Positions 6,441 to 24,858 of a stretch of 64,000 bases of DNA are shown one piece after another. The notes beneath the pieces were generated by a model. That model saw nothing but the letters and a program-made list of their open reading frames with translations. It was not told where the DNA came from and ran no database searches. Source of the stretch: an uncultured Acidobacteriota bacterium. GTDB taxonomy: Bacteria; Acidobacteriota; Thermoanaerobaculia; UBA5066; DATFVB01. The stretch's first letter is position 1, and every line of letters begins with the position of its first letter. The stretch is taken from the NCBI GenBank assembly GCA_963813155.1, contig CAWEYG010000001.1, forward strand, positions 736,001 to 800,000, given 5' to 3'. Both the position numbers and the translations under genes were made by a program.

Positions 6441-7149
6441 CGCCCCGACAGCCATCAACGGCAACGCGATCATCCGGATGGAGAAGATCCGAAAGCTCTA
6501 CGACACCGGCAAGGTGAAGGTCGAGGCGCTCAAGGGCGTGGACTTCGAAGTTCGGAAGGGAGAATTCGTCGCGGTCGTCGGGCCGTCCGGCTCCGGCAAG
6601 TCCACGCTCATGAACCTGATCGGCTGCCTCGACACCGCGACGGAGGGCGACTATTACCTCAGCGGCGAGCCGGTCTCGGGGATGTCCCGCGACGGCCTCG
6701 CGGACATCCGGAATCGGCGCGTCGGGTTCGTCTTTCAGAGCTTCAATCTGCTGCCGCAGATCACCGCCGCCGAAAACGTCGAGCTCCCGCTCGTCTTCGG
6801 CGGAAGGGCGCCCCGGGAGCGCAAGGAGCGCGTCGAGGAATTGCTCGCCCGCGTCGGCCTCGCGGACCGCATGGAACACCGGCCGACGGAGCTCTCCGGC
6901 GGGCAGATGCAGCGTGTCGCGATCGCCCGCGCGCTCGCGATGGACCCCGACATCCTTCTGGCGGACGAGCCGACCGGGAACCTCGACAGCGGCTCCGGCA
7001 GCGACATCATGAGCCTCTTCGCAGAGCTGTCCCGGCAGGGCCGCACGCTCGTCGTCATCACTCACGACATGGGCCTGGCCCGCCGCTCCGGCCGCATCGT
7101 CGAGATGCGCGACGGCGCGATCATCGCCGACGGGTCCGCGGCGGCCTGA
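6433..7149 (+). CDS. ABC transporter ATP-binding protein (MacB/LolD type)
   Basis: Walker [29 protein letters not shown] and VITHD. Confidence 0.95.
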
Positions 7150-7180
7150 AGATAACCCTTTCCCGACCGGCGAACCCCGG

Positions 7181-7209: not shown

Positions 7210-7223
7210 CTTTCAGGCCAGGA

Positions 7224-8477
7224 ATGCGGATTTCGGATCTTCGCCAGGACTCGGTGGGAAAAGCCATTCGGCTTTCTGCCGCCGTCGTGTGGGAAGACGC
7301 CGATCTTCCCGCCGAGAGGGTCTTCGTCGACGTGGAGGGTGTGGCGCCCGCGGAAGTCTCTCCGAGCGCCGAGTCCTTCGCGATTCGGGCCGCGCTCGCC
7401 GCGCTGCGGCAGCGAGAGAGGCGCCTTCTCGTGGAGGGGTCGCTTTGTCCCCGGCTGCGCGACGGCCTGCGGCAGGCCATGCGGACCCTGAATACCTGGT
7501 ATGACGGAGAGCGGGCCGAACCCGTCCTCGAAGCTTCGCTCGGATTCCGGGCGCTCGCTCCCCGGCCCCGACCGCGCGCCGGGTTGTTCCTCTCGGGCGG
7601 AGCCGACTCGCTGTTCATCCTGCGCTCGAACCGAACGAACTACCCCGCGGATCATCCTTCCTCGTTCCAGACGGCAGTCTTCGTCCCGAATTTCGGCGTG
7701 CCGCTCGAGGCGGTCGGCTCTCCCCGAGCCGCCGATGTTCTCCGCCGCCAGCGGAGCGCGGTCGCGAAGATTGCGGCGGCCGTGGGGCTTCGCCTGGTTT
7801 CGTCCTCGGCGCTCTCGAGCGAGCTCGGCGAGGATTCTCCCTACAGTGCGTCGAGCTCCCACGGGGCGCGGCTGGCGGCTCACGGCCTCCTCTTTGCCGA
7901 TCTCGATTCGATCTCGATCGCGCCGTCCTATGACGCCACCTATCAGCGGCCCTGGGGCAGCCACCCGCTCCTGGATCCCCTCTACAGCAGCAGCTCGCTC
8001 GAAGTGCGTCATGAAGGTTTCGGGTACACGCGGGTCGAGCGTGTCGCCGCCGTCGCGCGATGGAGCGAGGGCCTTCCTCACCTGATCGTCTGCGCTCAGG
8101 GACCGCTCGAGGATGGAAAAGCGAACTGCGGTCGATGCGAGAAATGTATCCGGACGATGATCGAGCTGCTCCTGGCAGATTCTCTCTCGGAAGACGGGCC
8201 GTTCGGGGTCGGCGATCTGGATGCTTCGCTCATCGACCCGTTCTTTCTCGATCCCCTCTCGACTGGCCATTGGAGATCTTTTCCCTCATCGCTTCGGGCG
8301 AAGGGGCGGACGGACCTTGCCGCCGCGGCCGAGCTCACGCTGCGAAACGCGTGTCGCAAGCTCGACTGGCTCGACGACCGCGGTTGGAAGGGCGAGCTCC
8401 GACGATTCGACCGGAAATACCTCGGCGGCCGGCTGCTCGATGCCAGCCGGCGAATTCGCGGCGCCGGGCGAAGCTGA
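7224..8477 (+). CDS. QueC-like PP-loop ATP pyrophosphatase family protein, paralogue P1
   Basis: LFLSGGADS, PWGSHPLLDP, VC..NCGRCEKCIRT and tail GWKGELRRFDRKYLGGRL. Confidence 0.85.
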   Translation: MRISDLRQDSVGKAIRLSAAVVWEDADLPAERVFVDVEGVAPAEVSPSAESFAIRAALAALRQRERRLLVEGSLCPRLRDGLRQAMRTLNTWYDGERAEPVLEASLGFRALAPRPRPRAGLFLSGGADSLFILRSNRTNYPADHPSSFQTAVFVPNFGVPLEAVGSPRAADVLRRQRSAVAKIAAAVGLRLVSSSALSSELGEDSPYSASSSHGARLAAHGLLFADLDSISIAPSYDATYQRPWGSHPLLDPLYSSSSLEVRHEGFGYTRVERVAAVARWSEGLPHLIVCAQGPLEDGKANCGRCEKCIRTMIELLLADSLSEDGPFGVGDLDASLIDPFFLDPLSTGHWRSFPSSLRAKGRTDLAAAAELTLRNACRKLDWLDDRGWKGELRRFDRKYLGGRLLDASRRIRGAGRS

Positions 8478-8479
8478 AA

Positions 8480-9724
8480 GTGCGAATTTCCGAGCCCCGC
8501 CTCGAGAAAACGGAATCGCGAATTCGGGCCGTCGCCCGCGTGGAATGGGAAGACTGCGATCGGCCGTCCGGGGACGTGGTCTTCGAGATGGAGGCGGAGC
8601 TGGCCAGCGAGTTCACCGCCTCGCCCGAGGCCTTCGCCATCGTCTGCGCGCTCCAGGCCCGCCGGGACGGTGAACGCCGCCTCAGAATCGAGGCGCCTCT
8701 CTGCCCCCAGCTCCGCGAGGGCCTATCTCGAATCTTCCTGACCCTGGACTCCTGGTTCCCCCCGCGAGCACGCGCGCCCGGGATCGAGGCCTCCGGGGGC
8801 TTTCGCGTCCTCGCGCCGCCCCCGCCACGGGCCGCGGCGCTCGTCTCCGCGGGAATCGACTCGCTCCGCCTGATCCTCGGAAACCGGAGGACCTTCCCGC
8901 GGGACCACCCGTATTCTTTCCTCGACGGGCTCTTCCTGTACGGCACCGTCAACCGGCAGGGTGTTTCTCCCTCGGCGATCGAAAACCTGGTCGAGCGCCA
9001 GCGGCGCTGCGTGGAGGCGGCTTGTCGCCTCGCCGGGATTCGGCTTCTTCCCGTTTTCATCGACCTCAACGTCCTCGGGGACGAGCGGGAGTTCGTGCTG
9101 TCGCAGGGGCACGGCGCGAGGCTCGCGGCGGCCGGGCATCTCTTCCACACCCTTTCGAGGGTTTCGATCGCGTCGTCCTATTTCGCCGGCGACCTGTTCC
9201 CCTGGGGCAGCCATCCGCTGATCGATCCCTTCTTCGGGAGCAGCTCGCTCGACATCCGGCACGAGGGCATCCACCGGCGGCGTCAGGAAGCCGTCCGCGA
9301 TCTTCTCGACTGGCCCGAACTTCTCCCGCTCGCAATGGTCTGCGGCGAGGCGCCGATCGATCCTCGCCGGATCAACTGCGGTCGATGCGAAAAATGCGTT
9401 CGCACCATGCTGGAGCTGGATCTCGCCGGCGCCCTCGAAGCCGCGACGTCCTTCCCGCGGCGCGCCCTCACGGCCGACGATCTCGATGCAATCTCTCCCA
9501 ACTACTCGGTTTTCACGTTCTGGCGGGACCTCGCCGAAGCTCTGGGAGCGAGCGCGCGAAACGACCTCGCCGCGGCGGCGCACCGTGTCGCCGACCGAGC
9601 GGCGCGCCACCGCGATTGGCTCGAAGAAAGCGGCTGGAAGGGAAGGATCCGCCGTTTCGATCGCGTTTCCCTCGGAGGCCGCCTTGCCGGTGCGAGAAAC
9701 GCGTTTCGCCGGGTTCGAGGATGA
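8480..9724 (+). CDS. QueC-like PP-loop family protein, paralogue P2
   Basis: GTG start 2 nt after the P1 stop; LVSAGIDS, PWGSHPLIDP, NCGRCEKCVRT and GWKGRIRRFDR. Confidence 0.85.
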   Translation: MRISEPRLEKTESRIRAVARVEWEDCDRPSGDVVFEMEAELASEFTASPEAFAIVCALQARRDGERRLRIEAPLCPQLREGLSRIFLTLDSWFPPRARAPGIEASGGFRVLAPPPPRAAALVSAGIDSLRLILGNRRTFPRDHPYSFLDGLFLYGTVNRQGVSPSAIENLVERQRRCVEAACRLAGIRLLPVFIDLNVLGDEREFVLSQGHGARLAAAGHLFHTLSRVSIASSYFAGDLFPWGSHPLIDPFFGSSSLDIRHEGIHRRRQEAVRDLLDWPELLPLAMVCGEAPIDPRRINCGRCEKCVRTMLELDLAGALEAATSFPRRALTADDLDAISPNYSVFTFWRDLAEALGASARNDLAAAAHRVADRAARHRDWLEESGWKGRIRRFDRVSLGGRLAGARNAFRRVRG

Positions 9725-9727
9725 CGC

Positions 9728-10951
9728 GTGCGAATCGTTGACCTTCGGCTCGTGCCGACTTCGACGGGGCGGCGGGCGTCCGCCAGACTCTTGTGGGAGG
9801 ACTCCGGCCTTCAACCCTTCGATGCGTATTTCGAGTCCGACGGAGACGGTAGGTCCGGTCTGCGAGCGGGCGCGAATGCGTTTCTCGCGGCCGCTTTCGT
9901 TCCCGCCATTCGCGCCGGCGAAAAGCGCATTCGGATCGAGGAGCAGGCTGTTTGCCCGATTCTTCGCGACGGATTGCGCGCCGCCGCGGCTTTCCTGCGG
10001 GCCTGGTACGGCCCCGCGATCGAACCCGCGATCGAGGCGCCCGGCGGATTTCGCGCCGACCGGCCGGAAGGACCGGCTGCCCTGTTTTTCTCCGGGGGAG
10101 CGGATTCGCTCCACCTGCTCCGCCTCAACCGTTCGATCTATCCGACTTCTCACCCGAACTCATTCCGCGAGGCGCTCCACTTCCTGGGAATGGCGATGTT
10201 CGAGGACGACCCCGGACAGGGCGCGCGCAACCTCGCGGCGCGCGGTCTTCGAAGCTCGGAACGCATCGCCCGAACGAGCGGATTGACCCTTCGAAGCGTT
10301 CGCTCGAACGTCGCTCGATTGAGCGGAGACAATCATTTCTGGGCCACGCACACTCAGGGCGCGATGCTGGCTTCCGTCGCCCTTGGCCAGACGATTCGCT
10401 CGGCCTCGCTCGCGGCGTCCTGGGACACCCGTGCTCTCCCTCCCTGGGGATCTCATCCCCTGCTCGATCCCGGGTACAGCTCGAGCGCGGTCGAGATCCG
10501 CCATCTCGGCGTCGATTTCACGCGGCTCGAGAAGTTGAGGGCCCTTGCGGACTGGCCCGAAGCGCTCGAGAACCTGATGGTCTGTCATGAAACGCCTCTT
10601 CCCGGTGACGAGATCAATTGCGGCCGATGCGAGAAGTGCGTGCGAACGATGGTCGAGCTTCTCGTCGCGAACGCGCTCGATCGCGCGACGGCCTTTCCCG
10701 TGCGCCGCGTGACCGCGGAGATGATCGACGCGGTCGAGCCCGCCCAGATTCGGACCGAAAGGTTCTGGAGCGACCTGACCGGGCCGCTCGAAGCGGTCGG
10801 ACGAGCCGATCTGGCCCGCGCGACGAACGCGTTCGTTTCCCGCGCCCGCCGCCAGCGACAATGGGAAGACGACAGCGGTTGGAGGGGGCGTCTCCGGCGG
10901 CTCGACCGCCGATACCTCGCAGGCGCGCTTCAGCGACTGAGACGACCGTGA
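9728..10951 (+). CDS. QueC-like PP-loop family protein, paralogue P3
   Basis: LFFSGGADS, PWGSHPLLDP, NCGRCEKCVRT and GWRGRLRRLDR. Confidence 0.85.
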   Translation: MRIVDLRLVPTSTGRRASARLLWEDSGLQPFDAYFESDGDGRSGLRAGANAFLAAAFVPAIRAGEKRIRIEEQAVCPILRDGLRAAAAFLRAWYGPAIEPAIEAPGGFRADRPEGPAALFFSGGADSLHLLRLNRSIYPTSHPNSFREALHFLGMAMFEDDPGQGARNLAARGLRSSERIARTSGLTLRSVRSNVARLSGDNHFWATHTQGAMLASVALGQTIRSASLAASWDTRALPPWGSHPLLDPGYSSSAVEIRHLGVDFTRLEKLRALADWPEALENLMVCHETPLPGDEINCGRCEKCVRTMVELLVANALDRATAFPVRRVTAEMIDAVEPAQIRTERFWSDLTGPLEAVGRADLARATNAFVSRARRQRQWEDDSGWRGRLRRLDRRYLAGALQRLRRP

Positions 10952-12213
10952 GAATCGAGGCGATTCGAAAGGAGACGCGGGAGGACCGCTCGGCCGTCCA
11001 CGCGCGAGTCGTCTGGGAGGAGTCGAGCCGGCCGCCCCTCGACCTTCGATTCGAAACGACGGCGCCGCCGGACGGTCTTGGGGAGATCGGAGGCAATCCG
11101 TTCCTCGTCGCATGCGCGCATTCCGCTCGATCCGAGGGCGAGCGCCGGATCCGCTTAGAAGACTCCGTTTGCCCTTTGCTCCACGACGGCGTACGGACCG
11201 CGATGAGGATCCTGGCCGGCTGGTACGGAGGCCGCTCGGAAGTCGTCCTCGAGGCCGCGAAGGGCCTCCGCGCCTTTCCGACGCGCTCCCCGCGCGCGGG
11301 ACTCTTCCTCTCCTGCGGCGTCGATTCCCTCCATGCGCTGCTGACGAACCGCCGGATCTTTTCCGCCGATCATCCCTCCGCGTTTCTCGACGCCGTCCAC
11401 GTGCCCTTCTTTTCCTTCCCCGACCCGTCCCCCGACGAGCGCGCCCGGGACATCGCCTCCCGGCAGAGGATTGCGCTCGAAACGCTTCGGAAACGGACCA
11501 ACCTGGAGCTCTGCGTCGTCGAAACGAACGCGGGCGCGGTCGAACCCGATTTCGACCTTCACGTCCTCCAGTCGCATGGCGCGTCGCTGATCGCCGCCGC
11601 ACACGTCCTCCCGGCTCGCGTCGGGACGGTTTCGATCGCTTCGAGTTTCGACGCGCCTCGAGCCCTGCGGCCCTACGGCTCGCACCCCGTGCTCGATTCG
11701 GCGTATGGCAGCAGCGGGCTCGCGGTGTCGCACGAAGGTATCGGCTACACCCGGCTCGAGAAGGTCCGCGAACTGGCCGGCTGGGAGCCCGCTCGGGACT
11801 CGCTGATGGTGTGCTTCGAGGGACCGCTTCCGGACGGGCGCCTCAACTGCGGACGGTGTGAAAAATGCCTTCGCACGATGACGGCGCTCTCGATCGCGGG
11901 CGGCCTCGAGCGCTTCACGGTTTTTGGAACAGCCCGACCGGACGTCGAGTTGATCGAAAAAATGCCGATCGGATACCATCCGCACGCCTTCGCGCACTAC
12001 TGGGAGCCCATGGAGCGGATTCTCCTCGATCAGGGCCGCCGCGATCTCTCGCGGGCTGTCGCCCGCCGGGTCGCCGAAGCGCGCCGCCTGAACGACTGGC
12101 TTTCGGAACGGGATTGGAAGGGCCGGCTCCGGCGGTTCGACCGCCGTTTCCTGGGCGAACGCCTCTCGTCCCTCGCGCGTGGCTGGCGCTCCCGGCACTC
12201 GAGAGAGCCGTGA
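10948..12213 (+). CDS. QueC-like PP-loop family protein, paralogue P4
   Basis: GTGA overlap with P3; LFLSCGVDS, PYGSHPVLDS, VCFEGP..NCGRCEKCLRT and DWKGRLRRFDR. Confidence 0.85.
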   Translation: MRIEAIRKETREDRSAVHARVVWEESSRPPLDLRFETTAPPDGLGEIGGNPFLVACAHSARSEGERRIRLEDSVCPLLHDGVRTAMRILAGWYGGRSEVVLEAAKGLRAFPTRSPRAGLFLSCGVDSLHALLTNRRIFSADHPSAFLDAVHVPFFSFPDPSPDERARDIASRQRIALETLRKRTNLELCVVETNAGAVEPDFDLHVLQSHGASLIAAAHVLPARVGTVSIASSFDAPRALRPYGSHPVLDSAYGSSGLAVSHEGIGYTRLEKVRELAGWEPARDSLMVCFEGPLPDGRLNCGRCEKCLRTMTALSIAGGLERFTVFGTARPDVELIEKMPIGYHPHAFAHYWEPMERILLDQGRRDLSRAVARRVAEARRLNDWLSERDWKGRLRRFDRRFLGERLSSLARGWRSRHSREP

Positions 12214-12238
12214 GCGGGCGCCGGCTGGAGGTTTCGGC

Positions 12239-13483
12239 GTGAGAATTCGGGATCTGCGCCTGGAATCGGCGGGCAATGCCCTTCGCGCTTCCGCCGCGAT
12301 CGAGTGGGAAGACACACCCCGACCTTCCCGCCGCCTCGCCTTTTCGGCGAAAGGCGCGCTCGCCTCCGCATTCGAGCCCGCGCCCGAGGCATTCGTTCTT
12401 TCCACCGCGTTGGCGGCCAACCGCGCCGGGGAAAGGAGGCTTCGCGTCGAAGCTCGCCTCTGTTCGGTGTTCGCGGACGGCCTCCGCGGCGCCTTCGCGC
12501 TCCTCGATTCCTGGTACGGAGGATCCCGCGTCGCGATGACGATCGAGGCGGCGGGGGGTTTTCGCGCCCGCGCGCGGGGCGCGCCGGTCGCCGCGATGTT
12601 CCTCTCGGGCGGCGTCGATTCGCTCCACATGCTTCGGCTCAACCGCCGCGCGATTCCGCGGCGGCACCCCGAGTCTTTTCGCGTGGCCATTCATGCCCCT
12701 TCTTTTGGATACACGGGCGACGCCGGGGACAGAGAGGCGCGGAACCTCCGGGAGCGAGCGTCGCACAGCGTGGAACAGATCGCCGCCGAGGAGAACCTCG
12801 ACCTGGCGGTCGTCAGCCTCCCTTCGCATCTTCTCGACCCCGAACGCCGGTTCTTCACCGGCGAGAGCCACGCGAGCCTCCTCGCCGCGACGGCTCACCT
12901 TTTCCCCGGCGCCCTGCGGTCGGCGTCGATCGCCGCCTCGGCGAATCTTCGGGGGCACCCGGGACCCTGGGGCTCGCACCCCCTTCTGGACCCCCTCTAC
13001 GGATCGGGGGCGGTGGCGATCCGGCACACGGGCCACGAATTCTCCCGGCTCGAAAAGGTCAGAGATCTTTCGAATTGGGACCTCGCAATGGCAACGCTGA
13101 TCGTTTGCAACGAGTCTCCTCTTCCGCCCGGCGTGACGAACTGCGGCCGGTGCGAAAAATGCGTGAGAACCCTCTGCGAGCTTCTCGCCGCCGGCTCCCT
13201 GGAGCGAGTCTCTACTTTCCCGGTTCGAGACATTTCCGCCGAATCCGTCCGGCGTCTCCAGCCGGTTCAAGATTTCGAAGGGCACAGCTGGAGGGATCTC
13301 CCTCGCGAGCTCGCGGGCCGGCCGGACCTCGCCGCGGCGATCGAGGACTGGATGACGCGGCTGCGGGCCTCGGCGGACTGGTGGGCGGATTGCGGCTGGA
13401 AGGGCCGTCTGCGAAAACTCGACCGCTCGCTGTTCCAGGGACGTCTCCTCGCGCTAAGGCGCCGATGGAGCGAGCAGCCGTGA
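12239..13483 (+). CDS. QueC-like PP-loop family protein, paralogue P5
   Basis: GGAGG at 12227-12231 then GTG; MFLSGGVDS, PWGSHPLLDP and NCGRCEKCVRT. Confidence 0.85.
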   Translation: MRIRDLRLESAGNALRASAAIEWEDTPRPSRRLAFSAKGALASAFEPAPEAFVLSTALAANRAGERRLRVEARLCSVFADGLRGAFALLDSWYGGSRVAMTIEAAGGFRARARGAPVAAMFLSGGVDSLHMLRLNRRAIPRRHPESFRVAIHAPSFGYTGDAGDREARNLRERASHSVEQIAAEENLDLAVVSLPSHLLDPERRFFTGESHASLLAATAHLFPGALRSASIAASANLRGHPGPWGSHPLLDPLYGSGAVAIRHTGHEFSRLEKVRDLSNWDLAMATLIVCNESPLPPGVTNCGRCEKCVRTLCELLAAGSLERVSTFPVRDISAESVRRLQPVQDFEGHSWRDLPRELAGRPDLAAAIEDWMTRLRASADWWADCGWKGRLRKLDRSLFQGRLLALRRRWSEQP

Positions 13484-15953: not shown

Positions 15954-15978
15954 GTCGGCGCGAACTGGCCCTCCGGCG

Positions 15979-17829
15979 TCACGAATCCGTTTGGAGGCAG
16001 CGGCGAACCCACGCGTCGAGAACCCGCGTGCGAAAACCGAGATCGTGGCCGAGCACCGCGTCCTCCTCGCAGAGCCCGGGGGACGTCCACCCGCCGGCCG
16101 CCAATCGCCGCCACGCGTCGCGGACGAGCTGGGGCGCCTCTCGGGCCTTTCCCTCGAGCGGGCCCGGGAGACCCAGTTTTCGGGGACGGGTCAGAATCGA
16201 AGCCGGGATGAGTCCCCGAAGCGCCGCCCGCAGGACCGCCTTCGTCCACCCGTTTCGAAGAAGGAATCCGTCCTGCAGGGTGCGCGCAAACTCCACGACC
16301 CGGTAGTCGAGAAAAGGCAATCGCGCTTCGATCCCGAAGGCCATGGAATTGCGGTCTTCGAAAGCGAGGAGCGCAGGAAGGTAATCGGCGAGGAGCAGGT
16401 GTCTCTGGTGCGTCTGCAGGGTCCCGTCGATCTCGCAACCGCAGGGCAGAGGCCGGCGCGACGTCCTCACGACCCCAAGCGTGTGCCGGGCTCCCCGAAC
16501 GGAGCCCCAGCGACGACGGCCGGAAAGAAACCCCTCCTTTACGGCCCGAGCGCGCTCGTTTCGGTTCCAGAGCTGCGCCACGTGGACGTCCCACGGCTCG
16601 TATCCGGCGAAGAGCTCGTCGGAGCCCTGCCCGCTCAACATGACCGTCAATCCGAGGCGGCGGGCCTCCCGATAAAGCAGGCGCTCCGCATAGAAGATCG
16701 AGCTGGGAATGAGCTCCTCCAGGGAGTCCACGAGCTCGTCGAGGTCTTCGTCGAATCCGTCCGTCGAAGGCTCGATGAATTCTCCGGAGAAGCCCGTCTC
16801 GCGAAGCGATTCCTCGATATAGAAACTCTCGTCGATTTCAGGCCGCCCCGGGTAGCGGGTCGAAATCGTGCGCCCCGAGAAACTTTCGCGATTTCGGTTG
16901 CTGCGGCCCAGGATGCCCGCAATCGCCGAAGAATCGACTCCGCCGGAGAGAAGCAGCCCGACCGGGACGTCGGCGCGCAGACGAATCGACACTGCGTCCT
17001 CGAGTAGTTCTCTCAACCGTTCCGCCGCGTCCTCGAGGCTGGCCGGAGCGTCGAGCGCGGCGGCGTTCCCGTCCAGGTCGTACCAGCGTTCGACACGGAA
17101 CCCGCGGGAATCGACCCGAAGGGTCGATCCGGCGGGCAACGATTTGTACGACGCGAAACAGGTCGACTCCTGATTGTCCAGCGTCGCGCCGACCTCGAGA
17201 AAGACACGAACGCGCTCGCGGTTGGCTTCCGGGGCTCGCACCGGGCGAAGGGCCTTCGGCTCCGACCCAAACGCGAACCGCGACTCCGTTGACGTGTAAT
17301 AGAAGGGCTTGATCGCGAACCGGTCCCGCGCGCAGAACAGCTCGCGGCGTTCCGCGTCCCAGATCGCGAACGCCCACATTCCGTTGAATCGCTCGAGAGC
17401 CTTCGCCCCCCATCGCACATAGGCCGCGAGCAAAACCTCCGTGTCAGTCGAAGTGGTGAATTCCTCTCCTTCCGACCGAAGCTCGTCCCGCAGCTCCGGC
17501 GCGTTGTAAATCGCGCCATTGAAGACGATCCACCACCGCCCGTTCCCCCGGCTCATCGGCTGCCGCCCCGAATCGGAGAGATCAGTGATCGCGAGCCGCT
17601 GATGCCCGAGCCCGATCCGGGGGCCGGCCGGGAACGGGCCAGCGGGCAGCGGCATCGCGGCGCGTTCCGAGAGACTCTCGCGCGGACCTTCGCGGAGGCA
17701 CGCCCCGTCGTCCTCCAGCCAGCCGCCCCCGTCGGGTCCGCGGTGCTCGATTCGGCGAAGCATCTCCAGGAGCATCCGGCGGTCCACCGGAGCACTCGAG
17801 AGTTCCATCACTCCGGCAATTCCGCACAT
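15979..17829 (-). CDS. AsnB-like class II glutamine amidotransferase (copy 1)
   Basis: Starts MCGIAG; HRGPD, LGHQRLAITDLS..GRQPM, LLSGGVDSS, LSGQGSDELFAGY and EDRNSMAFGIEARLPFLD. Confidence 0.9.
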   Translation of the reverse strand: MCGIAGVMELSSAPVDRRMLLEMLRRIEHRGPDGGGWLEDDGACLREGPRESLSERAAMPLPAGPFPAGPRIGLGHQRLAITDLSDSGRQPMSRGNGRWWIVFNGAIYNAPELRDELRSEGEEFTTSTDTEVLLAAYVRWGAKALERFNGMWAFAIWDAERRELFCARDRFAIKPFYYTSTESRFAFGSEPKALRPVRAPEANRERVRVFLEVGATLDNQESTCFASYKSLPAGSTLRVDSRGFRVERWYDLDGNAAALDAPASLEDAAERLRELLEDAVSIRLRADVPVGLLLSGGVDSSAIAGILGRSNRNRESFSGRTISTRYPGRPEIDESFYIEESLRETGFSGEFIEPSTDGFDEDLDELVDSLEELIPSSIFYAERLLYREARRLGLTVMLSGQGSDELFAGYEPWDVHVAQLWNRNERARAVKEGFLSGRRRWGSVRGARHTLGVVRTSRRPLPCGCEIDGTLQTHQRHLLLADYLPALLAFEDRNSMAFGIEARLPFLDYRVVEFARTLQDGFLLRNGWTKAVLRAALRGLIPASILTRPRKLGLPGPLEGKAREAPQLVRDAWRRLAAGGWTSPGLCEEDAVLGHDLGFRTRVLDAWVRRCLQTDS

Positions 17830-17838
17830 GGGAATCGA

Positions 17839-17887
17839 GATCTTAGCCCCGATCCAACTGCCGCGCTTATACTCTCGCGCGTGCGCG
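17839..17887. promoter_or_regulatory. Duplicated bidirectional promoter (copy 1)
   Basis: GATCTTAGCC..GATC....TGCCGCGCTTATACTC.CGC.CGTGCGCG recurs at 23561-23608; TAAGAT (minus strand) 10 nt before the asnB ATG and TATACT (plus strand) 7 nt before a GTG. Confidence 0.65.
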
Positions 17888-17926
17888 CGGAACGCTCCCG
17901 GTTGATTCCAAGGCGGTCCTTGTAGG

Positions 17927-19192: not shown

Positions 19193-20436
19193 AAATTACA
19201 GATCTCCAGAAGCGATCGATCGAAGAGCGCGTGCGCGTCTCGGCCCGCGTGGAATGGGAAGACTCCCCCCGAGCGCCCCTGGAGATTTACTACGAAACCG
19301 GCGCCTCGTTCGAGAACGACGTCGCCGCCGATTCCAATGCGTTCCTGACAGCCTGCGTTCTTCCGGCGATGCATCAGGGCGAAAAGAGGATCGCTCTCGA
19401 AGGCCCCGTTTGTCCGCGCCTGTGCGAAGGGCTCTCGACGGCGGGCGCGCTGCTGCGCTCGTGGTGGGGCCCTCCGCGAGGCGAAATCCGGATCGAATCG
19501 GCACGCGGATATCGGGCGCCGGTTCCCCGTCGACCCTCGCGCTCGGCGCTCTTCTTCACCGGAGGGGTCGATTCGCTTCATCTCCTCCGGCGGAACCAGA
19601 TCGACTATCCGCGAGCCCATTCCGAATCGTTCCAGGATGCCATCGCCGTGTTCGGGCTCCTCCGCCCCGATCGGGACGCTCGGGCTGCGCCGGACAAACG
19701 CGACGTCGCCACGCTGGGCGCCCTTTCGAGCATCACAGCCGAGGCGGGACTCCGACTGGTCCCGATCACCACGAACCTCACGCTGCTCGAGCCCGATCTG
19801 GACTTCTTCGCCAAAGAGTTCATCGGCGCGGCCCTGAGCTCCGTGGCTCACCTTCTGTCTTCCACCGTGAGCTCGATCTCGCTGGCATCCGGCCGCAACG
19901 TCCCACTCCTGGTTCCCCTGGGGACGCATCCCCTTCTGGATCCCTGCTTCAGCAGCGGCGCTCTGGATGTTCGCCACGTCGGGCTTCGTTTCTCGCGGAT
20001 TCAACGCATTCGCGAAGTCTGCGAATGGGATGCCGCGATCCGGGGCCTCGTCGTCTGCCTGAATTCTCCGCCGCCGCCGCACCTCAACTGCGGACGCTGC
20101 GAAAAGTGTCTGCGAACGATGACGGCCCTTGCGGCGTTCGGAAAGCTCGCGAGCGCCCGACTGTTTCCCGTCCCCGAGATTTCCGCCGCGATGATCGATT
20201 CGGCCGCTGTGACGCCCCACGTCGCCGGCTACTGGAGAGAGCTCCTGGGCCCTCTTCGAGACGCGCGTCGACCCGATCTCACTGCCGCGGTCGAGCGAAG
20301 ACTCGACGCCGCGAATCAAGCGAGGCGGTGGTTTGAGGAAGAGGGCTGGAAAGGGACGATGCGAAAGATCGATCGGCGATTTCTGGGAGGGGCAGCGCTG
20401 CGAGTCCGGCGAGTCCTGTGGAACGCCGCGAAATGA
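19189..20436 (+). CDS. QueC-like PP-loop family protein, paralogue P9 (closest to P7)
   Basis: GTGA overlap; LFFTGGVDS, PLGTHPLLDP, NCGRCEKCLRT; PAMH.GE.RIAL.GPVCPRL shared with P7. Confidence 0.85.
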   Translation: MKITDLQKRSIEERVRVSARVEWEDSPRAPLEIYYETGASFENDVAADSNAFLTACVLPAMHQGEKRIALEGPVCPRLCEGLSTAGALLRSWWGPPRGEIRIESARGYRAPVPRRPSRSALFFTGGVDSLHLLRRNQIDYPRAHSESFQDAIAVFGLLRPDRDARAAPDKRDVATLGALSSITAEAGLRLVPITTNLTLLEPDLDFFAKEFIGAALSSVAHLLSSTVSSISLASGRNVPLLVPLGTHPLLDPCFSSGALDVRHVGLRFSRIQRIREVCEWDAAIRGLVVCLNSPPPPHLNCGRCEKCLRTMTALAAFGKLASARLFPVPEISAAMIDSAAVTPHVAGYWRELLGPLRDARRPDLTAAVERRLDAANQARRWFEEEGWKGTMRKIDRRFLGGAALRVRRVLWNAAK

Positions 20437-21692
20437 AAGTCACGAACTTTCACCGGGAGGCTGGAACCGAAGACCGCTCCTGCTCGGCCGCGACGATTCA
20501 CTGGGAGGACAACGACCGGCCTCCGTTCGAAATGCGGTTCGAATGGAATGGAGACCCCCGGGAAACTTCACACCGCGAAATCCATCCGTTTCTGCTCGCA
20601 TCGATTCTCCCCGCCTGGCGGCGAGGAGAACGCCGGATCACTCTGGAGGGCGAGATCTGCCCGAGGCTCCGGGATGGTCTGGATACCGCACAGCAGATCC
20701 TTTCGAACTGGTACGGCCCGGAGCGCAAGCCCGTCGCGCTCGAGCCCGCACTCGGCTTTCGCTCCTACGACCGAAGACTCGAGAGCGCGGGCCTTTTCCT
20801 GACCGGCGGAGTCGACTCGCTTCACATGCTCCAGGCCAATCGCAGCGCGTTTCCCCCGGAACACCCCGCCTTTTTTCGCGAGGCGATCTATGTTTCCCGC
20901 CTTTCGTTCGTCGAAGAAATCCCGAGCGCACGGTCGCTGGACCTGGCGCGCCGACAGGCGGTGGCGGTCGAATCGATTTGCGCGCGGAACAATCTCCGGT
21001 TCCGGCGTCTGGAGAGCAATTTTCGCCTTCTCGACCACGAAAACTGGATGGTCGCCCCCCAGGATCAGGGCGCTCTTCTCGCGGCCTGCGGTCACGTCCT
21101 GTCTTCGGAGCTCGGCACGGTCTCGCTGGCCGCGTCTCTCGACATCACGTTTCTTCCGCACTGGGGAACGCACCCCCTTCTCGACACGAACTACAGCAGC
21201 TCGGGCCTCGAGTTCCGCCACGAAGGGATCGGCCGCGGACGCTTCGACAAGCTGGGGGAGATCGCCGACTGGGACACCGCCCATCGAGACCTGCTCGTTT
21301 GCTTCGAAGGCCCCATGCCAGCCGGCCAGCTCAACTGCGGCAGGTGCGAAAAGTGTGTTCGCACGATGACGGGTCTCCTGGTCCTGGGGGCTCTCGGTCG
21401 CTTCGACGTTTTCGGGTCCACCCAGGTGACGGTGTCGATGATCGAGAACATGGGCTACGGATACCATTCGGAGTTCTTCGAATGGCTCTGGCGCCCGATG
21501 GTCGAACCGCTCCGGCGGATCGCCCGCTCCGACCTCGCCCGAGCCGCGGAGGCTCAGCTCGCCTCCGCCCGAAAACACCGAGCCTGGATCGAAGAGCGGG
21601 ATTGGCGAGGGCGAATTCGGCGATTCGACCGGAAGCACCTCCGGGGCGCACTCTTGAAGGCGACTCGCGGAATCCGAAACAAAACGCGCTGA
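20433..21692 (+). CDS. QueC-like PP-loop family protein, paralogue P10
   Basis: ATGA overlap; LFLTGGVDS, HWGTHPLLDT and VCFEGP..NCGRCEKCVRT. Confidence 0.85.
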   Translation: MKVTNFHREAGTEDRSCSAATIHWEDNDRPPFEMRFEWNGDPRETSHREIHPFLLASILPAWRRGERRITLEGEICPRLRDGLDTAQQILSNWYGPERKPVALEPALGFRSYDRRLESAGLFLTGGVDSLHMLQANRSAFPPEHPAFFREAIYVSRLSFVEEIPSARSLDLARRQAVAVESICARNNLRFRRLESNFRLLDHENWMVAPQDQGALLAACGHVLSSELGTVSLAASLDITFLPHWGTHPLLDTNYSSSGLEFRHEGIGRGRFDKLGEIADWDTAHRDLLVCFEGPMPAGQLNCGRCEKCVRTMTGLLVLGALGRFDVFGSTQVTVSMIENMGYGYHSEFFEWLWRPMVEPLRRIARSDLARAAEAQLASARKHRAWIEERDWRGRIRRFDRKHLRGALLKATRGIRNKTR

Positions 21693-21713
21693 CCGTCCCG
21701 CGCGCCCGGAATG

Positions 21714-23552
21714 TCAGGGGTCTCCGCCGAGGCAACGTCGCGTCCACGCGTCGAAGATTCGAATGCGAAGCCGGAATTGGGGATCGAGCGATTCCCCGTC
21801 CGCCGGCGTCGAATCCATCCATCCGCCTTCGACGAGCCTCTGCCTCGCCTCGCGCACGGCGAGCGGCAGGCTTTGAACCCGGCTCTCAAAGGGACCGGGC
21901 AAGCCGAGCTTTCGGGGGCGTCGCAAGACCGAGTCGGGAACGACACCCGCGAGCGCGGCCCGAAGCACGGCTTTCGTCCAGCCGTCTCGGAGGAGAAACT
22001 CCGCGGGCAGGCTCCTCGCAAACTCCACGATCCTGTAATCGAGGAAGGGAAGTCGCGTTTCGATCCCCCACGCCATCGAGTCGCGATCCTCGAAAGCGAG
22101 AAGGCCCGGCAGATAGTCGAAGCAAAGCAGGTGCCTCTGGTGCTGCCGCAAGGAACCGTCGACCGGGCAGCCGCAGGGAAGCGGGCGCCGGGCGGTCCGG
22201 AGGATTCCCACCGTGTGACGGGCCCCCCGGACAAGTCCCCAACGGCGGCGGCCCGAGAGAAACCCTTCGCGAATCGCGGCCAGCGGCCGCCCCCCGTTCC
22301 AGAGCTGCTTCGTGTAAACGTCCCACGGCTCGTACCCGCCAAACAGCTCGTCGGAGCCCTGCCCGGAGAGCATCACCGGGAAACCGAGCTGCTTCGCCCG
22401 CCGGTGAAGCAGCCACTGTGCGAAAAAGAGACTCGACGGAACGAGGGCATCGACCGTCTCGATGAAGCAATCGAGACTCTCGGCGAATTCCTCTGCAGAG
22501 GGCTCGATGAAGTCCCCCGAGAACCGGGTCGCGTCCAGAACGTCTCGAATGTAGGCGCTTTCGTCGATGTCCGGGAGCTTCGGATACCGCGTCGAGATGG
22601 TGCGGCCGGAAAATTCTCCCTGCGAGGCGCGGTGACACAGAATGCCCGCGATTCCCGAAGAGTCGACGCCGCCCGAAAGCAACAACCCGATCGGCACGTC
22701 CGCGCGCAGTCGCAACGCGACGGAGTCCTCGAGCAATCCGCGGAGCCTCGCCGCCGCCTCCGGAAGGGTCGCGGGCGGAGCGATCGCCGCCACCCGTTCG
22801 TCATACCACTTCTCGATCCGAATTCCCGCGCGCCCGACCCGCAGGACATTGCCCGGCGGCAGGCAGCGGTAAGAGTCGTAGCAGGTGACGTCGACGCCGT
22901 CGGTCGTCGAACCCGTTGCGAGGTAGGTTCGCGCGAAGTCGACGTTCGGCGCGGCCGGCCGCACCGGTCGAAGCGCCTTGGGTTCGGAGGCGAACGCGAA
23001 CAGGGAACCCGCGGTCGTGTAGTAGAACGGCTTGATCGCAAATCGATCGCGAGCGCAGAAGAGCTCCCGGCGCTCCGCATCCCAGATCGCGAAGGCCCAC
23101 ATTCCGTTGAATCGGTCGAGAGCCTTCGCCCCCCATCGAACATATGCGGCAAGCAGCACTTCCGTGTCGGTCGAGGTGGTGAATTCCTCCCCTTCCGCCC
23201 GAAGTTCGTCACGCAGCTCGGGCGCGTTGTAGATCGCGCCGTTGAACACGATCCACCAGCGGCCGTTCGCCCGGCTCATCGGCTGGCGACCGAATTCGGA
23301 GAGATCGGTGATTGCCAGCCGCTGATGCCCAAGCGCGACCTCGAGCCCCGGGGCCCCGGCGGCGCCAGGACTCGGCCGCGTCGACGAAGGAAGCGGCGAA
23401 TGTCGGGCGCCCTGGAGAAGCGAAACGCCGTCGTCTTCGAGCCAGGCGCCGCCGTTCGGCCCGCGGTGCTCGATCCGATGGAGCATCCGCAGGAGAACGT
23501 CGCGATCCGCCGCGCCGCCGGAGAGGTCGAGGAGCCCCGCGATTCCGCACAT
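21714..23552 (-). CDS. AsnB-like class II glutamine amidotransferase (copy 2)
   Basis: MCGIAG, HRGPN, LLSGGVDSS and LSGQGSDELFGGY; a 92-aa stretch differs from copy 1 at only 3 positions. Confidence 0.9.
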   Translation of the reverse strand: MCGIAGLLDLSGGAADRDVLLRMLHRIEHRGPNGGAWLEDDGVSLLQGARHSPLPSSTRPSPGAAGAPGLEVALGHQRLAITDLSEFGRQPMSRANGRWWIVFNGAIYNAPELRDELRAEGEEFTTSTDTEVLLAAYVRWGAKALDRFNGMWAFAIWDAERRELFCARDRFAIKPFYYTTAGSLFAFASEPKALRPVRPAAPNVDFARTYLATGSTTDGVDVTCYDSYRCLPPGNVLRVGRAGIRIEKWYDERVAAIAPPATLPEAAARLRGLLEDSVALRLRADVPIGLLLSGGVDSSGIAGILCHRASQGEFSGRTISTRYPKLPDIDESAYIRDVLDATRFSGDFIEPSAEEFAESLDCFIETVDALVPSSLFFAQWLLHRRAKQLGFPVMLSGQGSDELFGGYEPWDVYTKQLWNGGRPLAAIREGFLSGRRRWGLVRGARHTVGILRTARRPLPCGCPVDGSLRQHQRHLLCFDYLPGLLAFEDRDSMAWGIETRLPFLDYRIVEFARSLPAEFLLRDGWTKAVLRAALAGVVPDSVLRRPRKLGLPGPFESRVQSLPLAVREARQRLVEGGWMDSTPADGESLDPQFRLRIRIFDAWTRRCLGGDP

Positions 23553-23560
23553 GGACAGGC

Positions 23561-23608
23561 GATCTTAGCCTGATCGAAATGCCGCGCTTATACTCGCGCC
23601 CGTGCGCG
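23561..23608. promoter_or_regulatory. Duplicated bidirectional promoter (copy 2)
   Basis: TAAGAT (minus strand, 23562-23567) 9 nt before the asnB ATG; TATACT (23589-23594) 7 nt before GTG23602. Confidence 0.65.
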
Positions 23609-24858
23609 TCGAGAATTTCGCTCTGACCCGGACGGGCGAGGCAGTCCGCCTCACCGCCGATATCATCTGGGAGGAGGCGCCGCGAAAGCCTTTTCAGCTC
23701 TATTACGAGATCGATGCGCGCTTCGCGGCGGATCTTCCTGATGACGGCGACGCGTTTCTCTGTTCGATCGCGATATCGGCATCGCGCGACGGAGAACGGC
23801 GCGTCCTCGTGGATCGGCCGGTGTCCCGCCGGCTTGCGGAAGGGGTGACAAGGGCGGTCGCGATTCTCAAGACCTGGTACCCCGGCCCCCGCACGCTCCC
23901 CCGGCTGGAATCTCCCGCCGGGTTCCTCACCCGGAGCAGCGGCGCCGGTTGCGCCTCCCTGTGCCTGACCGGCGGAGTGGATTCGATGCACGCGCTCCGG
24001 CAGAACCGCCGGAATCATTCCGCCTCCGATCCCCGGTCGTTCCGGCGGGCTCTTTACGTGCTTCACCTTTCGTTTCCTGCGGGCGACGCGCTCGCGCGCG
24101 CCCGCGACCTGGCGAAGAGGCAGCTGGCAACGCTCTCCGCAATCTGTGAGGAGACGGACCTTGACCTCTGCGCGGTTCGCACGAACGTTCGCCTGATCGA
24201 GCCCTCTCTGTCTTATTCGCAGGCGGAAGGGCTGGGCTCCCTTCTGAGCGCGTCCGCCCATATCCAGGCGCGCGGGCTCTCGTCCCTCTCGATCGCGTCG
24301 TCGTCCTACGAAGCGGAAGACCTCCGGCCCTGGGGCACCCACCCGTTGCTCGATCCGAACTTTTCGTCCAACTCTCTGGCAGTGATTCACGAAGACGCAG
24401 GCGTGCCGCGAACCGACAAAGTCCGGAACATCGCCCGGTGGAAACCGGCGTCACGGCACCTTCTCGTCTGCTTCGAGGGGCCGCTCGCGGATGGCCGGGC
24501 CAACTGCGGACAGTGCGAGAAGTGCTTGCGAACGATGACGGCTTTGCTCGCCGTTGAAGGCGCCGAAGAGAACGAGGCCTTTGCGGGCGCCAGGGTCACC
24601 GCCGAGGCGATTCGGCAAATGCCTCTCAGTTACGACCCGAACGAATTTCCGTACCTCTGGGAACCGCTCGCGAGATCGATGGACGGGACCGGCCGGGGCG
24701 ATCTCGCTTCCGCAATCCGCCGTCGCGTCGCGGAAGCCCGGAGATATCTGAAATGGCGCGCCGAAAAGGACTGGAAGGGGGTTCTCCGGAGGCTCGATCG
24801 GCGGTTGCTGGGTGGGCGCCTCACCGCGGCGACCCGAAAGCTGCGCGGAATCCGTTGA
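23602..24858 (+). CDS. QueC-like PP-loop family protein, paralogue P11
   Basis: LCLTGGVDS, PWGTHPLLDP, VCFEGP..NCGQCEKCLRT and DWKGVLRRLDRRLLGGRL. Confidence 0.85.
   Translation: MRVENFALTRTGEAVRLTADIIWEEAPRKPFQLYYEIDARFAADLPDDGDAFLCSIAISASRDGERRVLVDRPVSRRLAEGVTRAVAILKTWYPGPRTLPRLESPAGFLTRSSGAGCASLCLTGGVDSMHALRQNRRNHSASDPRSFRRALYVLHLSFPAGDALARARDLAKRQLATLSAICEETDLDLCAVRTNVRLIEPSLSYSQAEGLGSLLSASAHIQARGLSSLSIASSSYEAEDLRPWGTHPLLDPNFSSNSLAVIHEDAGVPRTDKVRNIARWKPASRHLLVCFEGPLADGRANCGQCEKCLRTMTALLAVEGAEENEAFAGARVTAEAIRQMPLSYDPNEFPYLWEPLARSMDGTGRGDLASAIRRRVAEARRYLKWRAEKDWKGVLRRLDRRLLGGRLTAATRKLRGIR

Follow-up and report, generated by a model that had tools for sequence, protein, structure and literature searches.

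What might eleven related PP-loop proteins and two asparagine-synthetase-like enzymes do when their genes lie side by side in a single locus? The question is raised by a window of 64,000 nt from an uncultured Acidobacteriota bacterium, in which eleven QueC-like paralogues (P1–P11) of 407–421 aa each are arranged in the order P1–P7, asnB(-), P8–P10, asnB(-), P11.

Layout and integrity of the array

A scan of the window for the motif C[GA]xCxxC gave exactly 11 matches, every one in the interval from 8127 to 24505 and on the + strand, and no internal stop was present in any of the 11 frames that hold them; the starts of P1–P11 were chosen from the alignment (Table 1). Five junctions (P3/P4, P5/P6, P6/P7, P8/P9 and P9/P10) have 4-nt overlaps, and the remaining same-strand junctions are gaps of 2–3 nt (two) or 25 nt (one). 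The asnB1 gene converges on P7 and diverges from P8; its open frame runs from 15979 to 17967, and the protein most likely starts with the MCGIAG at 17829. In the alignment, the copies were 30–58% identical to P1, P8 being the closest (58%) and P7 the most divergent (30%). The PP-loop [ST]-[GCA]-G-x-D-S, the cysteine cluster C-x9/10/11-CGxCxKC and a basic, Arg/Lys-rich C-terminal tail are kept in 11/11 copies. Residues invariant in all of them include G126, D128, S129, G245, H247, D251, C290, C302, C305, K307 and C308, and G126, C290, C302, C305, K307 and C308 are also invariant across 51 diverse family members. The first-pass annotation had described eleven intact, diversified and mostly translationally coupled paralogues in this order and with these motifs, and the motif scan, the frames and the alignment bear it out.

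Table 1. Features of the array and of the exporter genes upstream of it
Feature	Coordinates	Strand	Description
Adaptor	2704..3813	+	HlyD/MacA-like periplasmic adaptor of MacB-type tripartite exporter; HlyD_3, HlyD_D23 (Pfam)
MacB-like permease 1	3947..5170	+	MacB_PCD + FtsX
MacB-like permease 2	5181..6440	+	MacB_PCD + FtsX
ABC ATPase	6433..7149	+	MacB/LolD/DevA type; stops 75 nt before P1 start
P1	7224-8477	+	417 aa, QueC-like paralogue
P2	8480-9724	+	414 aa; PP-loop SAGIDS
P3	9728-10951	+	407 aa
P4	10948-12213	+	421 aa; PP-loop SCGVDS; start overlaps P3 stop by 4 nt
P5	12239-13483	+	414 aa; P6 is its sister in the tree
P6	13480-14724	+	414 aa
P7	14721-15953	+	410 aa; Cys cluster CGVCGKC, C-x9 spacing
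asnB1	15979..17829	-	Glutamine-hydrolysing asparagine-synthetase-type amidotransferase; GATase_7 + Asn_synthase (Pfam)
P8	17927-19192	+	421 aa
P9	19189-20436	+	415 aa
P10	20433-21692	+	419 aa
asnB2	21714..23552	-	AsnB-type amidotransferase, 612 aa, N-terminus MCGIAG
P11	23602-24858	+	418 aa

That the array is an assembly artefact, or that its genes are pseudogenes in decay, has two points in its favour: the source is a MAG of 23 contigs with 3.76% contamination, and one ortholog in a sister MAG, that of P5 in L052, is a frameshift read-through into the next gene. However, in the public run X1 the read depth was even across the array (5.5–11.5 in 30/30 bins) and contigs from the run span several of its gene junctions, while public contigs of a second study cover positions 8375–16639 at 95–99% identity. 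Relatives have tandem arrays of 7–10 copies; arrays are present in four further assemblies, one of which is a single-contig genome of 3.84 Mb. All frames are intact (11/11), and dN/dS was 0.13–0.24 in 6/6 ortholog pairs compared with a congeneric MAG; the ortholog of P1 in L052 is 90% identical, with a dN/dS of 0.16. The artefact, which the first-pass annotation itself had named as fatal to its proposal, is thus effectively refuted, and the probability that the copies are artefactual or decaying is virtually nil.

In a tree of the copies, the stems were long (0.5–0.9) and the tips short, with 1:1 syntenic orthologs inside each genus. The paralogues are old, separately conserved and under purifying selection. 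The host genome holds 13 copies in total, the 11 in the array and singletons on contigs C5 and C3. The family as a whole comprises 8220 clusters at 50% identity; most lineages have a single copy, and large arrays with AsnB are limited to one Thermoanaerobaculia family. The array arose by tandem expansion, specific to its lineage, of a family that is large, unnamed and usually single-copy, so the high copy number claimed for it is real here (11) but is not a family trait. Literature searches turned up no description of such a system, in agreement with the earlier claim that none with such a copy number is known.

Relation to QueC and other PP-loop enzymes

Searches with P1–P11 against Pfam, NCBIfam, PADLOC and PDB sequences gave no match. 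None of the 11 copies matched the Pfam QueC family at E<=0.01, the PF06508 search gave no array match at E<=10, and neither TIGR03573 (WbpG/WbuX/PseA type) nor the PADLOC models matched any copy at E<=1. Kinship with QatC/Cap9 or WbpG, both put forward for comparison in the first-pass annotation, is not upheld by these models.

A profile of 137 family sequences was compared by hhalign with 27 sequences of QueC (7-cyano-7-deazaguanine synthase, PF06508), and here a match was obtained (Prob 89%, P 2.2e-6, 176 columns). It spans nearly the whole QueC length, family residues 115–317 aligning to QueC 6–221, with SGGxDS placed on SGGxDS early in the core and VC..NCGRCEKC on CY..CGxCdsC, a four-Cys site of the CxxCxxC type, near its end; the order of PP-loop and cysteines is the same and their distance about equal. 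The separate halves matched QueC in the same order (PP-loop half, P 4.2e-6; Cys cluster, P 3.6e-4), and the control with reversed QueC gave P 0.05–0.17. In the same set-up, QueC against NASAT gave 6.4e-7 and QueC against AsnB 2.4e-5, so the link between the family and QueC (P about 3e-6) is as strong as those between QueC and NASAT or AsnB.

The family nevertheless differs from QueC. Its members are about twice as long, fall below the Pfam threshold and have a Cys spacing of C-x9-11-C instead of C-x8-C. The canonical QueC substrate motifs YxQxHxxE, VPxRN and YPDC (PMC13329287, section 6) were not found in the family, which makes it a QueC-like relative and not a QueC. There are no que genes near the array of 11 tandem copies, and the host's canonical QueC (240 bits), like a TilS-type gene, lies elsewhere in the genome. 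The QueC architecture proposed earlier thus holds at the profile–profile level, in two ordered segments, but not as membership of the Pfam family. From profile–profile P-values near 1e-6 together with the motifs, P1–P11 are assigned as QueC-like relatives with a predicted PP-loop. They consist of an N-terminal domain of ~115 aa that only this family has and whose E65 and R67 are invariant; a core (residues ~115–317) that appears to be a distant QueC relative, where a PP-loop for ATP is followed by a four-Cys site, presumably for zinc; and a helical basic tail of ~100 aa.

N-acetyl sugar amidotransferases of the WbpG/WbuX/PseA type (TIGR03573; cluster 5, PMC13329287) are PP-loop enzymes of 300–400 aa from polysaccharide loci which convert sugar groups to amidines or amides, and as a functional analogy they come closest to the glycan contexts of the family. 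However, hhalign gave only P 1e-3 to 3e-4 against a comparison profile of only 3 sequences, and their order of Cys motif and P-loop is reported to be the reverse of that in QueC (PMC13329287, section 8), whereas the array family has the QueC order. QatC/Cap9 (qatABCD, type IV CBASS defence) likewise put a QueC-derived scaffold to a new use, described in the published abstracts as protein-nucleobase conjugation; the array family differs from them in lacking a PADLOC match and partner genes and in its housekeeping syntenic setting.

The AsnB genes and the genomic contexts of the family

Both AsnB-like genes score above the TIGR01536 cut-off of 267.1 bits (asnB1, 391.5; asnB2, 383.2), which confirms them as genuine glutamine-dependent enzymes of the asparagine-synthetase type. 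This general cut-off is the only one they pass among the models compared: they fall below those of TIGR03108 (297 vs 817), TIGR03104, the N-acetylglutaminylglutamine amidotransferase type (274.8 and 269.7 bits vs 570), and the lasso cyclase NF033535 (292 vs 525). An N-terminal Cys glutaminase and a PP-loop synthetase domain are shared with the AsnB amidotransferases of surface-polysaccharide and NAGGN pathways; AsnB paralogues of these pathways amidate carboxylates other than aspartate. An AsnB was near the family gene in only 6/78 loci.

Once arrays and RimK-type loci are set aside, 38 loci remain; glycan-type genes were present at most three genes away in 16 of them (4/6 and 12/32), namely glycosyltransferases, pyruvyl transferases, Wzm/Wzt exporters, PGA_cap, DegT and deacetylases; the rest, including most cyanobacterial loci, had no such gene within 3 genes. 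Long forms were fused to PS_pyruv_trans (2) or GT2 (4) in 6/8 cases, and further fusions among 20 representatives were with PS_pyruv_trans, Sulfotransfer_1 and Acetyltransf_6. Partners recurring with the family are a pyruvyl transferase, UDP-glucose dehydrogenase (L060), a GMC oxidoreductase, a RimK glutamate ligase and AsnB, and we read in them a carboxylate theme, as they make or carry carboxylates.

The genes of a MacB-type exporter precede the array in the same orientation, and the adaptor scores 139.2 bits against TIGR01730 (cut-off 94.9). The adaptor-exporter order upstream of the array is also found in the relatives G080 and G060, and the order purL-UPF0158-HlyD-MacB-MacB-ABC-array-AsnB is shared by G080, L052, L061 and L065. 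This synteny is seen in close relatives only and could be an inherited order without a common function. A SLATT-like DUF4337-family protein is encoded just downstream of the array. As noted before, the window contains no queD/E/F, glycosyltransferase or defence partner.

Possible functions of the array

The array probably modifies acidic groups that belong to a polysaccharide of the cell surface or to an exported molecule. If the copies work as QueC and other PP-loop enzymes do, each would use ATP to adenylate a carboxylate, with release of PPi, and the activated acyl group would pass to ammonia or an amine; the result would be an amide, or perhaps a nitrile or amidine. The eleven copies might differ in the acidic group or in the amine that they handle on one complex product, for which an envelope or exported glycoconjugate is the likeliest candidate; the two AsnBs within the array would use ammonia from glutamine to amidate additional carboxylates, and the upstream pump may export the product. 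We give this specific scheme, ATP-dependent carboxylate activation and amidation on a glycoconjugate by the diversified copies and the AsnBs, a little less than an even chance. The P-loops of P2, P4 and P8, which read SAG or SCG instead of SGG, count against it. The glycan link is borrowed from distant relatives (~30–35% identity), as no glycosyltransferase was found in the rest of the locus and no pyruvyl transferase in the host genome (90.8% complete). Among the targets first listed (glycan, lipid, peptide or small molecule), glycans are favoured by the contexts and fusions elsewhere, and the peptide or RimK context is the main rival.

According to this rival, the substrates of the family are peptides or small acidic metabolites, and the array and its AsnBs build or amidate a glutamate-rich peptide, a lipopeptide or an osmolyte-like compound that the pump exports. 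A GNAT-RimK operon, which suggests peptides or small molecules, accompanies the family gene in 37/78 loci, all from Desulfobacterales, and an ATP-grasp homologue lies within 6 kb in 36/78 loci (BLAST cluster). Where Desulfobacterales loci were inspected, the family gene comes directly after that of a RimK-family alpha-L-glutamate ligase in 8/8, and the ligase is itself preceded by or fused to a ~600-aa protein that matches GNAT weakly. Peptides and lipopeptides are common cargo of MacB-type pumps with HlyD adaptors, the pump ATPase resembles those of bacteriocin and darobactin exporters, although below their cut-offs, and the relatives of the AsnBs include the N-acetylglutaminylglutamine amidotransferase. 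However, these Desulfobacterales members are a short form (~375 aa) without the C-terminal tail, the window has no RimK or GNAT gene, and every domain fusion seen is to a glycan enzyme. In addition, the gaps within the array are 0–49 nt, except for 97 nt between the divergent asnB1 and P8, so there is no space for a precursor-peptide gene. We consider the peptide reading unlikely, but deserving of serious attention.

It is improbable that the number of copies reflects dosage or structure, the copies being consumed stoichiometrically or forming a hetero-oligomer, and not substrate diversity. LarE, assigned to the QueC superfamily, has one form that is consumed in its reaction (PMC13329287, section 8), and the same residues are invariant in all copies here; but dosage amplification predicts near-identical copies, in contrast to the divergence seen and to the conserved orthologs that each copy has of its own, and a single copy suffices in most lineages. 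One apparent two-copy fusion (P0261) was rejected as a true fusion of neighbouring copies, being a frameshift read-through.

Less probable again is that the copies modify nucleic acid (tRNA, rRNA or DNA) as QueC, TilS and TtcA do, with the basic tails binding RNA and each paralogue having its own target. The resemblance to the PP-loops of QueC and TilS and the tail kept in every copy are in its favour, but the host already has its own QueC and TilS-type genes, the QueC substrate motifs are missing, and the contexts and fusions involve glycan enzymes or the RimK ligase, not genes of RNA modification or deazaguanine synthesis. Finally, an anti-phage or conflict system of the QatC/Cap9 type is very doubtful, for despite the QueC-like core, the SLATT-like neighbour and the tandem diversified paralogues typical of conflict loci, PADLOC matched no copy, nearby QatA/B/D, CD-NTase, Cap10 and nuclease genes were not found, the surroundings are housekeeping genes in synteny across genera, and selection on the copies is purifying, not diversifying.

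Eleven paralogues and two asparagine synthase genes

A six-frame scan of the 64-kb window for the motif C[GA]xCxxC returned exactly 11 matches, all on the forward strand between 8127 and 24505 and each in an uninterrupted frame. They belong to the QueC-like paralogues P1–P11, whose gene starts were fixed by aligning the copies with one another (see table); at five gene junctions of the array the genes overlap by 4 nt. The proteins are 407–421 aa long, identity to P1 ranges from 30 to 58% and column identity averages 54%. All eleven carry a PP-loop-like [ST]-[GCA]-G-x-D-S, a WG[ST]HPLLD motif (which P8 and P9 start as LG[ST]H), the signature V-C-x9-11-CGxCxKCxR and a tail rich in arginine and lysine. 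The description given in the first-pass annotation was right in every particular that we checked.

Features of the array and of other parts of the window
Feature	Coordinates	Strand	Description
P1	7224-8477	+	QueC-like paralogue
P2	8480-9724	+	QueC-like paralogue
P3	9728-10951	+	QueC-like paralogue
P4	10948-12213	+	QueC-like paralogue
P5	12239-13483	+	QueC-like paralogue
P6	13480-14724	+	QueC-like paralogue
P7	14721-15953	+	QueC-like paralogue
asnB1	15979-17829/17967	-	GATase + Asn_synthase domains; N-terminus MCGIAG
P8	17927-19192	+	QueC-like paralogue
P9	19189-20436	+	QueC-like paralogue
P10	20433-21692	+	QueC-like paralogue
asnB2	21714-23552	-	GATase + Asn_synthase domains; N-terminus MCGIAG
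P11	23602-24858	+	QueC-like paralogue
DUF4337 protein	24812-25549		directly after P11; weak SLATT-domain match (E 1e-5, under cut-off)
C92-like protein	25562-26431		sub-threshold match to permuted papain-like C92 amidases (24.7 bits, cut-off 27)
FtsX-domain frame	36905-37285	-	127 aa, C-terminal FtsX permease domain only
Sulfatase-TPR paralogues	58902-61166 and 61019-63331	-	N-terminal sulfatase domain + C-terminal TPR repeats

It had also been proposed that sequencing reads could expose the array as an assembly artefact. Contigs from the public soil run X1, which may be the source sample of the MAG, covered positions 7000-25000 in 30 of 30 bins at a depth of 5.5-11.5 and spanned the junctions P1/P2, P5/P6, P6/P7, asnB1/P8/P9, P9/P10 and P10/asnB2/P11. 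Run X2, from a different study, covered 8375-16639 at 95-99% identity. The source genome (3.81 Mb in 23 contigs, 90.8% complete) holds 13 copies, the 11 of the array and two singletons, and a match to the family was found in 16 of 151 sampled genomes of the class. All three other genomes of the same taxonomic family are multi-copy: seven copies stand in tandem in the single-contig genome G080, ten in tandem plus one more in G060, and at least 12 matches were found in the unpublished genome G104. For six ortholog pairs between the window and a congeneric MAG (locus L052), dN/dS was 0.13-0.24. The even coverage and bridged junctions in X1, the arrays in relatives and these ratios uphold the array; an assembly artefact or a pseudogene graveyard is excluded. 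Two further runs, X3 and X7, gave short pieces at 95-99% identity with 'joints' having sides of 21-26 letters, which we took as noise from other organisms. Among the runs listed as covering the stretch, none was of RNA.

The two minus-strand genes within the array scored 391.5 (asnB1) and 383.2 bits (asnB2) with TIGR01536, the model for glutamine-hydrolysing asparagine synthase, against a cut-off of 267.1; with both domains and an N-terminal Cys as nucleophile they are assigned to it. With the lasso-peptide cyclase model NF033535 they reached 291.9 and 271.3 bits, under its cut-off of 525. In an X1 contig asnB2 has an in-frame insertion of 6 nt behind position 22799, with a depth of 8.15 of 12.6, which is a strain variant. 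A third Asn_synthase locus of the source genome, G000:C6:7675-8819, matched the model in three pieces lying in different frames, perhaps through a frameshift in the gene or a fault of assembly, and C4:30181-30615 gives a fourth, partial match.

Directly upstream of the array, on the same strand, an adaptor, MacB_PCD/FtsX permease(s) and an ABC ATPase are encoded together, which identifies a MacB-type tripartite ABC exporter; no outer-membrane factor for it was found within the window. In G080 a second HlyD-MacB pump, this one accompanied by an outer-membrane factor (OEP), lies beyond the AsnB gene at the array end (L007:9511-13539), so that this array is bordered by exporters on either side.

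The DUF4337 and C92-like genes downstream of P11 did not adjoin the family in the 78 other loci listed. Farther along the window, the frames of the two adjacent sulfatase-TPR paralogues, as called, overlap by ~150 nt, and the frame with an FtsX domain may come from a larger permease gene that crude gene calling split.

Relation to QueC and other PP-loop enzymes

None of the 11 copies matched Pfam at E≤0.01 or NCBIfam at E≤1, and profiles of 11 and 51 rows found chance-level matches among PDB chains (best E 0.24). Even so, it is a large family. Searched with a profile, 1.84 billion cluster representatives yielded 8220 proteins at E≤1e-3, of which 5925 reached E≤1e-10 and 2650 E≤1e-30, and the named matches in a set of 5.8 billion proteins were all called 'hypothetical protein' and had no Pfam domain. 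Across 51 members C290, C302, C305 and C308 are invariant; in the PP-loop the same holds for G126 and almost for D128 and S129. The N-terminal domain has invariant E65 and R67. Two residues of the core, H247 and D251, are invariant in the 11 copies and kept in at least 90% of the 51 members.

We compared a family profile of 137 rows with a profile of 27 QueC sequences from Acidobacteriota genomes, one row of which came from the unpublished genome G004. Family positions 115-317 aligned with QueC 6-221 (Prob 89%, P 2.2e-6), SGGxDS on SGGxDS and the family's Cys cluster on the zinc cluster of QueC. The middle piece (105-265) alone matched the N-terminal part of QueC with P 4.2e-6 and the Cys piece (266-330) alone matched QueC 186-225 with P 3.6e-4, whereas the reversed-QueC control gave P 0.05-0.17. 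Nothing in this comparison matched the family's first 112 residues or its C-terminal 100. TilS, NASAT (the N-acetyl sugar amidotransferases, a profile of 3 rows) and AsnB matched the family with P 1e-4 to 1e-3. On the scale of the same procedure, QueC matched NASAT (3-sequence profile) at 6.4e-7 and AsnB at 2.4e-5; since the P-value of the family against QueC is comparable to these, its core is as QueC-like as recognised PP-loop families are to each other. We consider it probable that the family consists of ATP-dependent, QueC-like PP-loop enzymes.

The QueC-like architecture proposed in the first-pass annotation stood in its profile-profile match and PP-loop, but not in PF06508, the QueC model, or in the substrate motifs. 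PF06508 (gathering score 22 bits) matched none of the 11 copies at E≤0.01, and a whole-genome search with it at E≤10 picked up the canonical QueC and five further places, all outside the array. Of 20 distant representatives, 3 reached 11.9-18.0 bits, sub-threshold, on the C-terminal Cys region. The four cysteines of the family align to the QueC zinc motif C(x)8CxxCxxC with a first spacer of 9-11 instead of 8, and zinc binding is a prediction. YxQxHxxE, VPxRN and YPDC, which according to a survey of PF06508 proteins are needed for preQ0 synthesis (PMC13329287, section 6), do not occur in the aligned family columns, and a canonical QueC (240 bits) is encoded outside the array in the same genome. 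Judged by these sequence features, the family falls outside QueC in the strict sense.

The survey covers QatC, Cap9, LarE, a PfkB-linked cluster, WbpG-type amidotransferases and GMP synthase, and its sections 6 and 8 describe nothing like the architecture of P1–P11 (PMC13329287). TIGR03573, the model for N-acetyl sugar amidotransferases, matched none of the 11 copies at E≤1, and hhalign gave P 1.1e-3 and 2.7e-4 with a profile of 3 sequences. DUF6395 (PF19932), on which our literature search found no paper, matched three array copies (E 0.008-0.6) and 5 of 20 representatives weakly, over the Cys motif and the stretch just after it. No copy matched a PADLOC model at E≤1, those of the QatC/Cap9 defence proteins included, and the partner genes of these systems are absent from the window; a defence role of the array is very improbable. 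Scans of the window bore out the earlier statement that queD/queE/queF (to which we add other deazaguanine genes), glycosyltransferases and defence partners are missing from it.

Genomic neighbourhoods of the family

We scanned one genome per species by pattern and obtained at least 597 stretches. Of those listed, 578 could be confirmed, and the 78 loci retained belong to Acidobacteriota, Chloroflexota, Cyanobacteria, Verrucomicrobiota, Planctomycetota, Desulfobacterota, Actinomycetota, Nitrospirota and Pseudomonadota. Among these 78 loci, counted within +/-10 kb, 7-8 copies were present in three and four copies on one 6.6-kb contig, all four being relatives within Acidobacteriota/Thermoanaerobaculia; four loci had three copies and the remaining 70 had one or two. 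AsnB stood near a family gene in 6 of the 78 (L052, L053, L060, L061, L065 and L122), and the order purL-UPF0158-HlyD-MacB-MacB-ABC-array-AsnB was shared by the window, G080, L052, L061 and L065.

Genes that we classified as glycan-type lay no more than three genes away in 16 of the 38 loci that were of neither the array nor the RimK type (4 of 6 and 12 of 32, the latter from 146 scanned out of 150 chosen neighbours). They encode GT2/GT4 glycosyltransferases, polysaccharide pyruvyl transferases, Wzm/Wzt-type ABC-2 exporters, PGA_cap proteins, DegT aminotransferases, deacetylases, UDP-galactopyranose mutase, UDP-glucose dehydrogenase and sulfotransferases. The remaining loci, including most cyanobacterial ones, had no glycan-type gene within three genes, and in the source genome no pyruvyl transferase was detectable. 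Fusions agree with the polysaccharide-locus context: among eight long relatives (E≤1e-10) two carry PS_pyruv_trans and four GT2, and among 20 representatives P0223 is fused to PS_pyruv_trans, P0230 to Sulfotransfer_1 and P0238 to Acetyltransf_6. A PS_pyruv_trans match in P0168 was sub-threshold.

In four loci from four phyla (L064, L070, L073 and L089) we noticed a GMC oxidoreductase and a 4Fe-4S dicluster protein downstream of the family gene, with an NrfD-like membrane protein in L073 and often a hexapeptide acyltransferase or PGA_cap alongside. This group may serve as a module that oxidises sugars and so provides the carboxylate.

A different arrangement was found in Desulfobacterales, where a shorter, tail-less form (~375 aa) directly follows a RimK-family alpha-L-glutamate ligase in all eight loci inspected; in each of them a protein of ~600 aa that matches GNAT weakly stands before the ligase or is fused to it. 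These loci are L085, L090, L104, L129, L091, L111, L087 and L082, with the family gene at ~10001, and the GNAT-RimK fusions measure 695-916 aa. The layout of the unit resembles that of the N-acetylglutaminylglutamine amide pathway, except that a QueC-like protein takes the position of the AsnB-type amidotransferase. TIGR03103 matched weakly (25-44 bits, cut-off 569). By BLAST clustering, an ATP-grasp homologue lay within 6 kb in 36 of the 78 loci listed.

Possible function and history of the array

The partners that recur elsewhere (pyruvyl transferase, UDP-glucose dehydrogenase, GMC oxidoreductase, RimK and AsnB) all make or carry carboxylates, so carboxylate amidation is their most economical common denominator. 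Each copy would adenylate a carboxylate and pass it to ammonia or an amine, as QueC and AsnB do, and together the eleven copies and the two AsnBs would act on many acidic positions of a single product, either exported or bound to the envelope. We put this proposal forward tentatively as a whole. The tailoring of a surface or exported product is the likely role, and as a function it is unsurprising. More doubtful is the fuller picture of a new major branch of the QueC-like PP-loop superfamily that would act on glycan carboxylates (uronic acids, pyruvate ketals, acidic side groups) and yield amides, nitriles or amidines. In one Thermoanaerobaculia family it would have grown into a battery of 7-13 specialised enzymes which, with AsnB, would mask charges of an exported envelope polymer in a combinatorial pattern. 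Glycans would thereby be diversified in a way that has not yet been described.

Peptides or small molecules are the main alternative to glycans as substrates, suggested by the RimK operons and the MacB-type pump; we consider this unlikely. Nucleic-acid modification by the family, or a sacrificial or hetero-oligomeric role of the copies, is highly improbable.

In the literature searched, the relevant part of which was partly accessible, we found no description of the family or of such arrays, and a search for Thermoanaerobaculia with tandem asparagine synthase gave nothing relevant among the papers listed. What we rate as new is a large PP-loop/QueC-like branch with its own architecture and a lineage-specific expansion to 7-13 copies, the superfamily itself being known. 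The branch comprises thousands of sequence clusters in at least eight phyla, yet it has no Pfam or NCBIfam model, no solved relative by sequence and no paper that we could find. If its members amidate carboxylates of glycans or peptides, this would be new chemistry for the tailoring of surface polysaccharides; many 'hypothetical proteins' of polysaccharide loci would gain a name and a function that can be tested, and it would widen the recent picture of the QueC scaffold being reused for new ends. An array of 11-13 copies is also a natural experiment on how substrate specificity diversifies in one scaffold.

We calculated a maximum-likelihood tree of 67 copies by a quick IQ-TREE search, leaving out the G104 locus, the two half-loci of G080 (L065 was used instead) and rows with fewer than 330 profile positions. 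The copies of the window and L052 formed 1:1 syntenic orthologs and those of G060, L061 and L065 formed 1:1:1 triplets, whereas the copies of the two genera were mostly without 1:1 pairing; the stems were long (0.5-0.9 changes per site) and the tips short. P5 and P6 were sisters, and L052 had one additional copy adjoining P1. By this pattern the paralogues are old, individually conserved and slowly turning over, a history that fits functional specialisation and not dosage. In L052 the P5 ortholog is frameshifted after the Cys motif and runs on into the P6 ortholog. The resulting protein P0261 (L052:16319-18820, 826 aa), which at first suggested a Rosetta-stone fusion of adjacent copies, was rejected as a frameshift read-through, the frameshift being either a decaying copy or a sequencing error.
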